A stretch of DNA of 64,000 bases from Escherichia coli. Its GTDB lineage: Bacteria > Pseudomonadota > Gammaproteobacteria > Enterobacterales > Enterobacteriaceae. The stretch is from the NCBI RefSeq assembly GCF_041886205.1, contig NZ_CP169029.1. The stretch is one strand, 5' to 3'. Position numbers: made by a program. Of this stretch, positions 4,301-7,300 are shown one piece after another. How positions within the stretch are numbered: position 1 is the first letter of the stretch; each line of letters opens with the position of its first letter.

Positions 4301-7300
4301 GAAAAGGCAGCACGTTGCTGCCTGGCGCGCCAGTGGTCTTACACGCCAGCAATACTGTGAACTCAACGATATTCCCTTCACATCACTTCGCGAATGGCCG
4401 CAGGATGTCGCAAAAGCTGAACGCCGGGCAAATGAACCGACCGTTCTTCCCGTTCATATTGCGCCACCACTGCATGCTGATGTACCACAGCCCGTCACGG
4501 ATGAGCCAGTCACGCTCTTCCTTCCCGGTGGAGTACGGATGTGCTGTCAGCCGTCACAACTTACCGATGTCTTCAGGGCGCTCAAATATGCTCAGTCCTG
4601 ATAATGTCTTCATCGCGATTAAACCTGTTGACATGCGCCGGGGCATCGACACACTGACGCAGTATATACAGGATGAACTCCGGTCGACATGGCATGAGGG
4701 AGCCGCCTTCGTCTTTGTTAACAAAGCCCGTTCGCGTATCAAAGTTCTCCGGTGGGATAAACACGGGGTGTGGTTGTGTACCCGCCGTCTGCACAAAGGC
4801 AGCTTCCGCTGGCCACGTGCAAATGACGCTGCCTGGCACCTCACTCCCGACGAGTTTAACTGGCTGATTGCCGGTGTTGACTGGCAGCAGGTTAAGGGAC
4901 ATGACCTGACGAAATGGGTCTGGCAGAATGAACCTGAACTGCGCCCTGAAAACACGCAAAATACACTGCTAACTCAGTGAAAAATAATGAATATCCGTAT
5001 CTGAAGTGGTATACTCCCCTGTATGGATATCTCCGCTCTCAACACCACGAATGACATCGAAAAACTGCGTGCTATGGCACTTGCCATGGTACAAAAAGTC
5101 ATGTCGGAGAATGCCGAAAAAGAGCGGGAATTACTGGAGAAAAGCCGGCGCATCCAGCTTCTGGAAGAAATGCTGAAACTGGTTCGTCAACAGCGCTTCG
5201 GTAAAAAATGTGAAACGCTGGCTGGTATGCAACGCTCCCTGTTCGAAGAGGATGTTGATGCCGATATCGCCGCGCTTACCGCACATCTGGATAAACTGCT
5301 CCCGCAATCCCCTGAAGAAGACGAAAAAGCGCCCCGTTCACGCCCGATACGCAAACCCTTACCGGTTCATCTTCCTCGGGTGGAAAAAATTATCCAGCCG
5401 GACACTGACCATTGCCCCGAATGTGACGAGCCGCTGCACTATATCCGTGATGCGGTGAGTGAAAAGCTGGAGTATATTCCCGCTCACTTCGTGGTGAACC
5501 GTTATATCCGTCCGCAATACAGTTGTCCCTGTTGCCAGAAGGTGTTCAGCGGTGAAATGCCGGCACATATCCTCCCGAAAAGTGCCGTTGAGCCATCAGT
5601 CATCGCACAGGTGATCATCAATAAATACGGTGACCACCTGCCTCTGTATCGCCAGCAACAGGTCTTTGCCCGTTCAGATGTCGGGCTGCCCGTCAGTTCG
5701 ATGGCTGCCATGGTTGGCGCGGCGGGAAGGGCATTACACAAAGCCATTGTCTATGCGCTGTCTCATCGCGTGGAACTAAGCCGCTTCCTGGAAGATGGTG
5801 CGGTGCCGCTGGATAATAATGTGTGTGAACGGGCCATCAAAAACGTGGTCCTGGGCAGAAAATCGTGGCTGTTCGCCGGTTCGCAGATGGCAGGAGAACG
5901 CGCCGCGCAAATAATGAGCTTGCTGGAAACCGCGAAACGCAACGGTCTGGAGCCGCATGCCTGGCTGACAGACGTCCTGATGCGTCTGCCGGAGTGGCCG
6001 GAGGAGCGACTGGCAGAGTTGCTGCCTCTTGAGGGATTTACCTTCTCCGGGTGAGTGATACCTGCCGTCAGGTGTTCGTGCACCGGGCCATAACCTGCCG
6101 TCGGGAGTTAAACGCCTGACGACAGGAAATCAGCAAGGCCAGCAACCACACGGGCTGACAGCGAATCAGAACCTGAATCAGCCCGGAGTCATTCCAAGGG
6201 CAGTACTTCATCACCTGCCACCAATACCCGGGTCAGTACTTCGCGACCTGACGCGATCACCTAACTCAGTACTTCAGAGCCAGCCTCCGGTACCTGCCCG
6301 GCGATCGCCCCTGTACAACAAAATAAATCATCGTCAGACGGCGATCATTCGTATGCTTCACCGATGGACGCCCGAAAAAGCGTCAATATGGGTTCGCCGG
6401 AACGATACACTGAAGCTTACATTTCAGGTAAAGCAGAAATATATTTCCTGAAATACATATCTCTCCATAAAGTAAGAACACTCATAATTCCAAGTTTATT
6501 GTAAAGTTTCTTCTTCTGACAGGAGAGCGTCTTCAGACTACGGTTTCGATAACGAGCTATCTCCGATAATGATTTCCCTGTCAACAACTGACATAAAAGT
6601 AATAATTCCATTTCAGTCAAGCTCCAGGGTATATTAATGCAGACTGTTTGTTTATATTCCTGAATGTATATGGACACACATCTTGTCTTACTGTATACCA
6701 TTCAGCGCTCCTGAAAATCAGCATATTGTAAAAAGGGAATTTTTAAATTTCCAACAACAAATATCACCACAGATTATAACAGAAATATATTTAACATATA
6801 TGGCATTACTACATGGCATTGCTACAACTGATTATCAGTACATCTTTGCTAAAACCATTTAACTCCGTTAAAACCTGACAAGTTCAGCATGACTGAAAAA
6901 CTTTATCAAAGCCAGGAAATCATAACATACAGTAGTGGTGAAATAGTCAATAGTACAGTCTGTTTCACTATTATAAGGACCTCTGTCTGTATTCATTAAA
7001 ATATTTCCGACTGACATACCTGCAGAAAATAACTGCAGCAACAGTTGCTGCCACACTGGCATTTACATTATTCCACATAAACAATGCGATTATTTGCGTA
7101 TTCCGCTCTATTCGATCACAGATTGATCCAAATCATGATCAATTCGAATGCCAAACCGTGATCTATTCAGATGCCATTTTGCAATTATTTATCTCCTGTA
7201 TAGTATTCCCACGCTGACAATGCATTTTCACATCTTTTTAACCACATAAATATTATGTCCTCCAGAGGTAATTTCAGTGACGGTAATATAGCAACGCCAG

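Follow-up and report, generated by a model that had tools for sequence, protein, structure and literature searches.

Enterobacterial genomes, virulence plasmids and pathogenicity islands contain many insertion sequences (IS) of the IS66 family, whose way of moving is poorly understood. In a 64,000-nucleotide stretch of Escherichia coli DNA (contig NZ_CP169029.1, assembly GCF_041886205.1; the whole stretch is called the window), which is 100% identical to the chromosome of E. coli JML285, an ISEc49-like copy of such an element has a group of short repeats downstream of its transposase gene tnpC. An earlier note on this DNA had described three tandem imperfect repeats and short inverted repeats just after a truncated IS66 element, and had left two origins for them: remnants of IS66 ends or an unrelated repeat element. 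Are these repeats debris beside a decayed transposon, or are they a part of it, and what might they do there? Our answer is that they lie in a tail that belongs to the mobile unit. That this tail is a selected, non-coding, accessory module of the right end is well supported, and its conserved short motif points to a candidate control or binding site.

Repeats between tnpC and the right end

The repeats that the earlier note had reported are present. On the plus strand, CAGTACTTC occurs three times, at 6201, 6234 and 6267, the start-to-start distance being exactly 33 bp both times (about 34 bp had been proposed before), and a repeat finder returned a 28-nt family of three copies that are 71-75% identical (D1). 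The periodicity stands above background: the autocorrelation over 6190-6305 is highest at lag 33 (0.566; runner-up 0.414), and when the 366-bp region was shuffled 20,000 times, a three-fold 9-mer appeared in 20 of the shuffles, equal spacing not being required. Tandem Repeats Finder, run on 6055-6408 with a minimum score of 30, did not report the array, because the units have diverged outside a core of 10-20 nucleotides; the periodicity was shown by seed extension and autocorrelation. No further copy of CAGTACTTC is present on either strand of the window.

Closer to the tnpC stop codon, ACCTGCCGTC(A/G)GG(T/A)GTT is found in two direct copies, at 6060-6076 and 6093-6109, which are also 33 bp apart (repeat finder, D3). 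The short inverted repeats are the arms at 6061-6076 and 6111-6126 (16 nt, 88% complementary; I1), and the inverted copy at 6111-6126 is able to pair with either direct copy (6060 or 6093). Copy 1 (ACCTGCCGTCAGGTGTT, 6060-6076, plus strand) is the most conserved stretch of the tail in elements of the type-A lineage defined below; copy 2 (ACCTGCCGTCGGGAGTT) and the inverted partner (AACGCCTGACGACAGG), together at 6093-6126 on the plus strand, make up an imperfect hairpin or palindrome in which 6094-6108 pairs with 6112-6126. Short words related to the repeats are enriched in the window's tail: ACCTGCC has four copies where 0.02 are expected, and CTGAC/GTCAG has six where 0.75 are expected.

All of these repeats are inside the IS, as the element runs on to 6408; they do not follow it, as had been thought. 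In the RefSeq annotation of the identical JML285 locus, tnpA, tnpB and an 'IS66 family transposase' stand directly upstream of the repeats, and comparison with intact relatives places the ends of the element at 4185 (GTGTCGTTAAGGGG...) and 6408 (...GCCGGAACGATAC). The 354 bp from the tnpC stop codon to the tip of the IS (6055-6408), right inverted repeat (IRR) included, are called the tail; the non-coding stretch between stop codon and IRR (6055-6379, plus strand) is specific to one clade.

The tail as part of the mobile unit

In E. coli-like contigs, two Serratia species and Salmonella, intact tail-bearing elements of 2.73-2.78 kb stand between 8-bp target duplications (GCATTAAC in L063/L079, GCTGGAAC in L006, TGTGGTGC in L102 and CCAGCAGG in L112). 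Three-unit copies of ISEc49 sit at many insertion sites, with up to ten copies per chromosome and five different prophage sites, and no copy with a direct sign of recent mobility has fewer than two good cores. The tail is thus shown to be an integral part of the mobile unit.

This bears on both origins offered by the earlier note. Nested or duplicated ends do occur, as in an E. coli O157 strain (L004) where a second, partial right end follows a complete one, and by our own reading the units have GTCA.TA in common with the inner part of the inverted repeat. However, when ten units were aligned locally with eight right and six left inverted repeats, the mean z was about 0 to 0.8 relative to shuffles. 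The units are thus not degenerate copies of the ends, to which they have no detectable similarity, and they occur at the same internal site in intact, target-duplicated elements. Nor is the array an independent repeat element, because its motif is found only in the clade of ISEc49-type elements: a scan of a viral contig collection returned a single, chance-like match outside this clade, and the window holds none elsewhere. The link to IS66 stands, and we regard both end remnants and an independent element beside a truncated IS as very improbable.

Element diversity was sampled by a DNA-pattern scan of metagenomes and by protein homologues with their contigs, and the Enterobacterales clade of TnpC relatives was collected by protein search; a scan of genome contigs with TnpC gave a single, truncated locus. 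Tails of 285-375 bp are present in ISEc49, the L037/L039 lineage, Serratia marcescens, S. fonticola, Salmonella (two types), Citrobacter and Pantoea. On a neighbour-joining TnpC tree, the nine sampled lineages that have a tail (from Escherichia, Salmonella, Serratia, Citrobacter and Pantoea) form one clade. This monophyly indicates that the tail was gained once and that all nine have kept it since, as TnpC identity fell to 57%. Sister lineages from Yersinia, Xenorhabdus, Sodalis, another Salmonella lineage and an E. coli lineage have only 55-60 bp at this position; in other IS66 elements the IRR follows the tnpC stop codon after about 30-60 bp (about 30 bp in Pseudomonas), and an Azospira element has a passenger open reading frame (ORF) there. 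Compared with other IS66 transposases on plasmids, ISEc49 TnpC reaches 38% identity at most. Among the short-tailed sisters, a perfect 8-bp duplication is present in at least the Yersinia copy (L100). The tail is thus accessory rather than essential, because sister lineages without it still transpose. A search of 5,426 complete E. coli genomes for derivatives resembling miniature inverted-repeat transposable elements, in which both left end and tail would fit into about 730 bp, found none.

The tails fall into four types that are barely alignable to one another: A (ISEc49, L037/L039, Serratia), B (Salmonella, L099), C (Pantoea, L101) and D (Salmonella L112 and Citrobacter L113). TCAGTACTT is the sole 9-mer common to all four, where none is expected (terminal 30 bp excluded), and the shared 6-mers are pieces of TCAGTACTT plus CCTGAC, ACCTGA and CACCTG. 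The consensus of a unit is (G)TCAGTACTTC-N4-CCTGAC, and types A, B and C have two to three direct copies of it 33-34 bp apart. In the window, unit 1 (6200-6232) reads GCAGTACTTC-ATCA-CCTGCC, unit 2 (6233-6265) TCAGTACTTC-GCGA-CCTGAC and unit 3 (6266-6298) TCAGTACTTC-AGAG-CCAGCC, each on the plus strand and each followed by a spacer. Unit 2 is the best conserved and is invariant across all tail types; unit 3 is specific to the type-A lineage. TCAGAACCTG at 6166-6175 (plus strand), 34 bp upstream of unit 1, is possibly a degenerate fourth unit; Serratia elements have TCAGTACCTG at this position. Types A, B and C also have an imperfect CCTGAC/GTCAGG hairpin or palindrome near the start of the tail.

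Could the tail nevertheless be functionless, a leftover of passenger or duplicated DNA whose units arose by slippage and whose likeness is kept up by recombination among IS copies? Passenger genes occupy the same position between tnpC and IRR in other IS66 elements (L098), lineages free of a tail are mobile, and mosaicism is frequent. In the window copy, identity shifts sharply at the tnpC stop codon (6054-6098): the 3' part of tnpC is 99.1% identical to that of ISEc49, the tail about 88%, and this tail variant has a match of at least 99% in one of the 5,426 genomes, which is JML285. Judging from this shift, the window copy is a chimera of tnpC and tail. Similarly, L025 joins an ISEc49 tnpC (98.5%) to a one-unit tail of the K-12 type (81%), and the Serratia TnpC groups with type-D elements, yet its tail is type A; tails and transposase genes recombine as separate modules. 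The number of units also varies: most copies have three and L087 has two, and the one-unit tail, found in the remnant shared by K-12 and BL21 and in L025, L027 and L035, is a precise fusion of units 1 and 3 with the loss of 66 bp. Unit number shifts by unequal recombination.

Against a functionless tail stands, firstly, its presence, since a single gain, in each of the nine descendants sampled, which are compact elements. Secondly, and as stronger evidence than the conservation within type A, the footprint of the motif survives in four types diverged beyond alignment, which is hard to reconcile with a passenger. Thirdly, within type A the spacers of units 2 and 3 are 3-4 times more variable than the cores, and Serratia tails keep all three cores exactly at an overall identity of 75%. 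Conservation also exceeds that of neighbouring synonymous sites, type-A tails being 73-87% identical between lineages while four-fold sites of tnpC in the same pairs are 43-48% identical (saturated), or 48-68% in the last 60 tnpC codons, which adjoin the tail. A tail with no function is therefore, in our judgement, improbable.

Site array, RNA or protein

If the tail is under selection, the product selected could be a protein, an RNA or the DNA itself. The +2 frame of the tail is open for 107-116 codons in several lineages, 33 bp correspond to 11 codons, which would give a small protein with an 11-residue repeat (SVLxxLxxxPx), and 'hypothetical protein' genes are annotated over the tail in some genome records. 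However, this frame opens right after a stop codon and has no ATG, GTG or TTG start; it is broken by 1-nt indels or stops in the intact elements L037/L059, L038 and Serratia; the variable columns of the tail show no three-base periodicity (chi-square p = 0.49), and indels of 1, 4, 7 and 8 nt are tolerated. A coding tail was rejected on these grounds, and a small protein, in this frame or on the opposite strand, is the least credible of all explanations considered here.

The main rival to a function as DNA is that the tail acts as RNA, in the 3' untranslated region (UTR) of tnpABC: Rho loading would end transcription inside the IS, or the tail would give rise to a 3'UTR-derived small RNA, with the hairpin after the stop codon protecting the 3' end of the mRNA. 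The plus strand from the tnpC stop codon to the IS tip is C-rich and T-poor with a GC skew of -0.13, C being about twice as frequent as G in 6175-6325. Folding of the plus strand goes weakly beyond shuffles (z = -0.5 to -2.2), as is expected of a Rho loading site, and promoter and terminator scans found neither a sigma-70-like promoter nor an intrinsic terminator inside the tail. Strand asymmetry and weak structure are together what a Rho loading (rut) region in the tnpC 3'UTR would look like, and, as in rut regions, the stretch is C-rich, G-poor, poorly structured and without an intrinsic terminator and covers about 120-150 nt downstream of a stop codon. The varying spacing of the hairpin arms between tail types is allowed for a stem-loop, and one stem position is G-T in 15 of 17 sequences, a pair that is tolerated only in plus-strand RNA.

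Other observations speak against an RNA. An exact motif of 9-10 nt is kept across tail types in a fixed phase of 33-34 bp; the phase has no explanation in RNA, and Rho loading sites are not known to require an exact 9-10-mer conserved over such divergence. A promoter for an independent transcript was not found in the tail. Rfam has no meaningful match in the window IS and none at E-values up to 0.5 in five related loci. RNAalifold of 17 type-A tails gave a covariation term of -0.82 with compensatory changes in 3 of 73 pairs, and pair counts for three named hairpins were no better than in shuffles, so that no proposed helix shows covariation; as helices hardly vary within type A, this result is uninformative rather than negative. 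Across eight tails from seven lineages and both strands, folding z-scores range from -0.4 to -2.9 with no consistent strand, and the tail does not look like a structured RNA by these measures. It resembles the omega RNA of IS200/IS605 TnpB and the bridge RNA of IS110 elements in being a conserved non-coding region that extends from the transposase gene to the end of the element, but differs from both in its weak folding and its lack of an Rfam match or covariation; moreover, TnpC is a DDE enzyme of an element with ordinary inverted repeats and 8-bp target duplications. Overall, we consider a role as RNA rather unlikely.

Two further identities were tried and rejected. CCTGCCCGGC is common to the window and to the nick region of RP4, which suggested an IncP-type origin of transfer (p about 0.007 for this copy only), but the tails of ISEc49, Serratia, Salmonella and Pantoea gave p = 0.10-0.40, and the likeness, limited to the window copy and not conserved, was treated as chance. 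A type III toxin-antitoxin array such as the ToxI-like antitoxin repeats (about 36 nt) would likewise consist of tandem direct repeats of about 33-36 nt, but the units of the tail are only 71-75% alike and are conserved over no more than 10-20 nt, and there is no ORF between the array and the tip: no toxin gene follows, because the IS ends 110 bp later.

We favour, tentatively and at somewhat less than an even chance, the reading that the motifs act in cis as DNA sites which share one face of the helix and are bound cooperatively by a protein that the IS encodes. The exact motif, its kept phase of 33-34 bp, its direct orientation and its limitation to one IS clade argue for DNA sites. The spacing equals three helical turns and would phase the putative sites on one face; candidate binders are TnpA, a small helix-turn-helix protein, and the N-terminal part of TnpC with its zinc finger and leucine zipper. 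A bound protein would then tune assembly or activity at the right end, as accessory or enhancer-type sites do in other transposons. Multiple subterminal transposase-binding sites are present in Mu (L1-L3, R1-R3), Tn7 (TnsB sites) and IS21 (multiple terminal repeats). Likenesses to these are the short direct repeats inside one end, the whole-turn spacing, the asymmetric ends and a DDE element with accessory proteins. The internal activation sequence of Mu, a transpositional enhancer, is internal, unlike the ends, accessory and distance-tolerant; the tail, as far as can be judged from sequence, resembles it in all four respects.

A number of observations weigh against an array of protein-binding DNA sites. 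Type D has two copies of the motif that are separated and not tandem. The arms of the palindrome are 3, 0 and 8 nt apart in types A, B and C, respectively, and such variable spacing is more in keeping with a stem-loop than with a rigid dimer site. All tail types have a plus strand rich in C and poor in T, with GC skews of -0.13 to -0.20 compared with +0.05 in tnpC, an asymmetry that is easier to explain by a transcript than by a duplex protein site. Unlike the sites of Mu, Tn7 and IS21, the units are dissimilar to the terminal repeat, as the alignments with the inverted repeats showed, and are absent from the left end: TCAGTACTTC, with up to two mismatches allowed, is found neither there nor elsewhere in the IS. 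The distance from array to tip also varies with tail type, from about 50 to 150 bp, and the units are missing in sister lineages that transpose normally. No TnpA or TnpB domain was found that is restricted to tail-bearing lineages. Finally, the disagreement between the phylogenies of tail and tnpC means that recombination explains part of the conservation within type A.

More broadly, the tail is possibly a cis-regulatory module acquired by one IS66 clade, either as an array of TnpA/TnpC sites (an enhancer or right-end control) or as an RNA element of the tnpC 3'UTR; we hold this view on quite tentative terms. We also noted three GATC (Dam) sites in the window's tail (6255, 6303 and 6343), each within GCGATC; a link to methylation control of transposition is possible. 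The Salmonella type-B tail shares GCGATCAT, which lies near the IRR in the window copy.

The window copy, IS remnants and wider meaning

The window copy itself (4185-6408, plus strand) is an internally deleted, non-autonomous ISEc49-like element, as annotated by RefSeq at the identical JML285 locus, with ends set by intact copies. Its left inverted repeat (GTGTCGTTAAGGGGAAGTCATCTTCACAG, 4185-4213, plus strand) begins with GTGTCGTT and its right inverted repeat (GCGTCAATATGGGTTCGCCGGAACGATAC, 6380-6408, plus strand, with the IS tip at 6408) finishes with AACGATAC; in a manual count of left against reverse-complemented right, about 19 of 29 positions match. The element has the GTA start typical of IS66, and the ends of its relatives begin with GTAAGC, GTAATG or GTATCG. 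The three genes lie on the plus strand in the order tnpA-tnpB-tnpC, with overlapping or adjacent frames, as in the IS66 family: tnpA (4272-4601, 109 amino acids, with a weak HTH_Tnp_1 match), tnpB (4588-4980, the IS66 family accessory protein by RefSeq annotation; its homologue in ISEc49, L002 from strain OkiPb01695, matches Pfam TnpB_IS66 with E = 4e-35) and tnpC (5023-6054, 343 amino acids).

The earlier note had spoken of a truncated IS66 and a deleted tnpC. The 3' end of tnpC is complete, with the normal C-terminus and stop codon; what is missing is internal. TnpC of the window equals residues 1-234 of ISEc49 TnpC joined in frame to residues 413-521, with a junction near 5725, and 178 codons (residues 235-412), most of the DDE core, are gone. 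LZ_Tnp_IS66, zf-IS66, DDE_Tnp_IS66 and DDE_Tnp_IS66_C are all matched, the DDE domain being split by the deletion and matched at its ends only. ISEc49 has the same gene order, inverted repeats and three-unit tail, and the two retained parts of its TnpC are 95-100% identical to the window; apart from the divergent tail, the window copy differs in lacking the 178 DDE codons and a target duplication. No 8-bp duplication surrounds it (flanks CAAGAAGG and ACTGAAGC), so that it is a rearranged or old copy, and with a transposase without catalytic core and no target duplication it is a relic. The exact 343-residue protein (P0040) is present on 335 contigs of a large protein collection; as an uninterrupted junction, the tnpC deletion occurs only in JML285 among the 5,426 complete E. 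coli genomes.

The element is embedded in a patchwork of decayed mobile DNA. On the left it adjoins a frameshifted ISL3-family transposase (2509-4005, minus strand), beyond which lies a contact-dependent inhibition (CDI) immunity gene. On the right, a 94-residue ORF on the minus strand (6417-6701), unannotated in RefSeq, abuts the IS end and has a sub-threshold match to the GerE/LuxR helix-turn-helix (E = 1.9e-4, 21.5 bits, cut-off 23.5). Further right, an uninterrupted ORF of 459 residues on the minus strand (7307-8686) has the ImpA_N and VasL domains of type VI secretion, where RefSeq annotates pseudogene fragments only.

Relatives of the element are also found in pieces. In E. coli K-12 BW2952 (L007, 3001-3300), and likewise in BL21 and many other strains, a solo remnant consists of a 3' fragment of tnpC, a one-unit tail and the IRR; it sits between a phosphoethanolamine transferase pseudogene and an IS4, and L025 has an intact IS at the same site. 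In the O157 strain FDAARGOS_293 mentioned above (3360-3510), the complete right end is followed by a partial right end of about 85% similarity that starts exactly at unit 3 (CTCAGTTCTTCAG...), and this doubling goes back either to an insertion nested in a tail or to a duplication. Upstream lie a tnpC without its N-terminus and, adjoining, an IS682-family element in opposite orientation. In L077 (about 150-260), the left end of another IS66-family element (GTAAGCGTCG...) lies inside unit 2 of a tail, and in L027 (about 9010-9150) an ISEc49-type right end is inserted into another IS66 tnpC, in its 3' part; insertion of one IS66 element into another seems to be frequent. Other targets are toxin genes. 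ISEc49 interrupts rhsC in L002 (1-1596 and 4346-5857), and P0036 and P0076-P0079 are predicted fusion proteins in which a PT-VENN toxin domain (PF04829) is joined to the N-terminal part of ISEc49 TnpC; repeated insertion of ISEc49 into rhs or CDI toxin genes leads to such chimeric gene calls.

In the literature that we searched there is no description of the tail or of any IS66 cis element besides the inverted repeats; as far as this search reaches, both the conserved motif and its restriction to one clade are undescribed. One study reports binding of the beta clamp by TnpB and TnpC, and not DNA sites (PMC3971601). For annotation, the consequences are direct: the tail belongs to the IS, 'hypothetical protein' calls over it are likely spurious, and solo tails, including those of E. 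coli K-12 and BL21, are IS scars. For the IS66 family, the tail is a concrete and cheap target for mutagenesis, which could reveal the sequences recognised by TnpA, TnpB or the TnpC N-terminus. If it is indeed a cis-regulatory module, it would be the first cis element of the IS66 family to be defined besides the inverted repeats, and it would offer an experimental way into the unexplained need for TnpA, TnpB and TnpC together.

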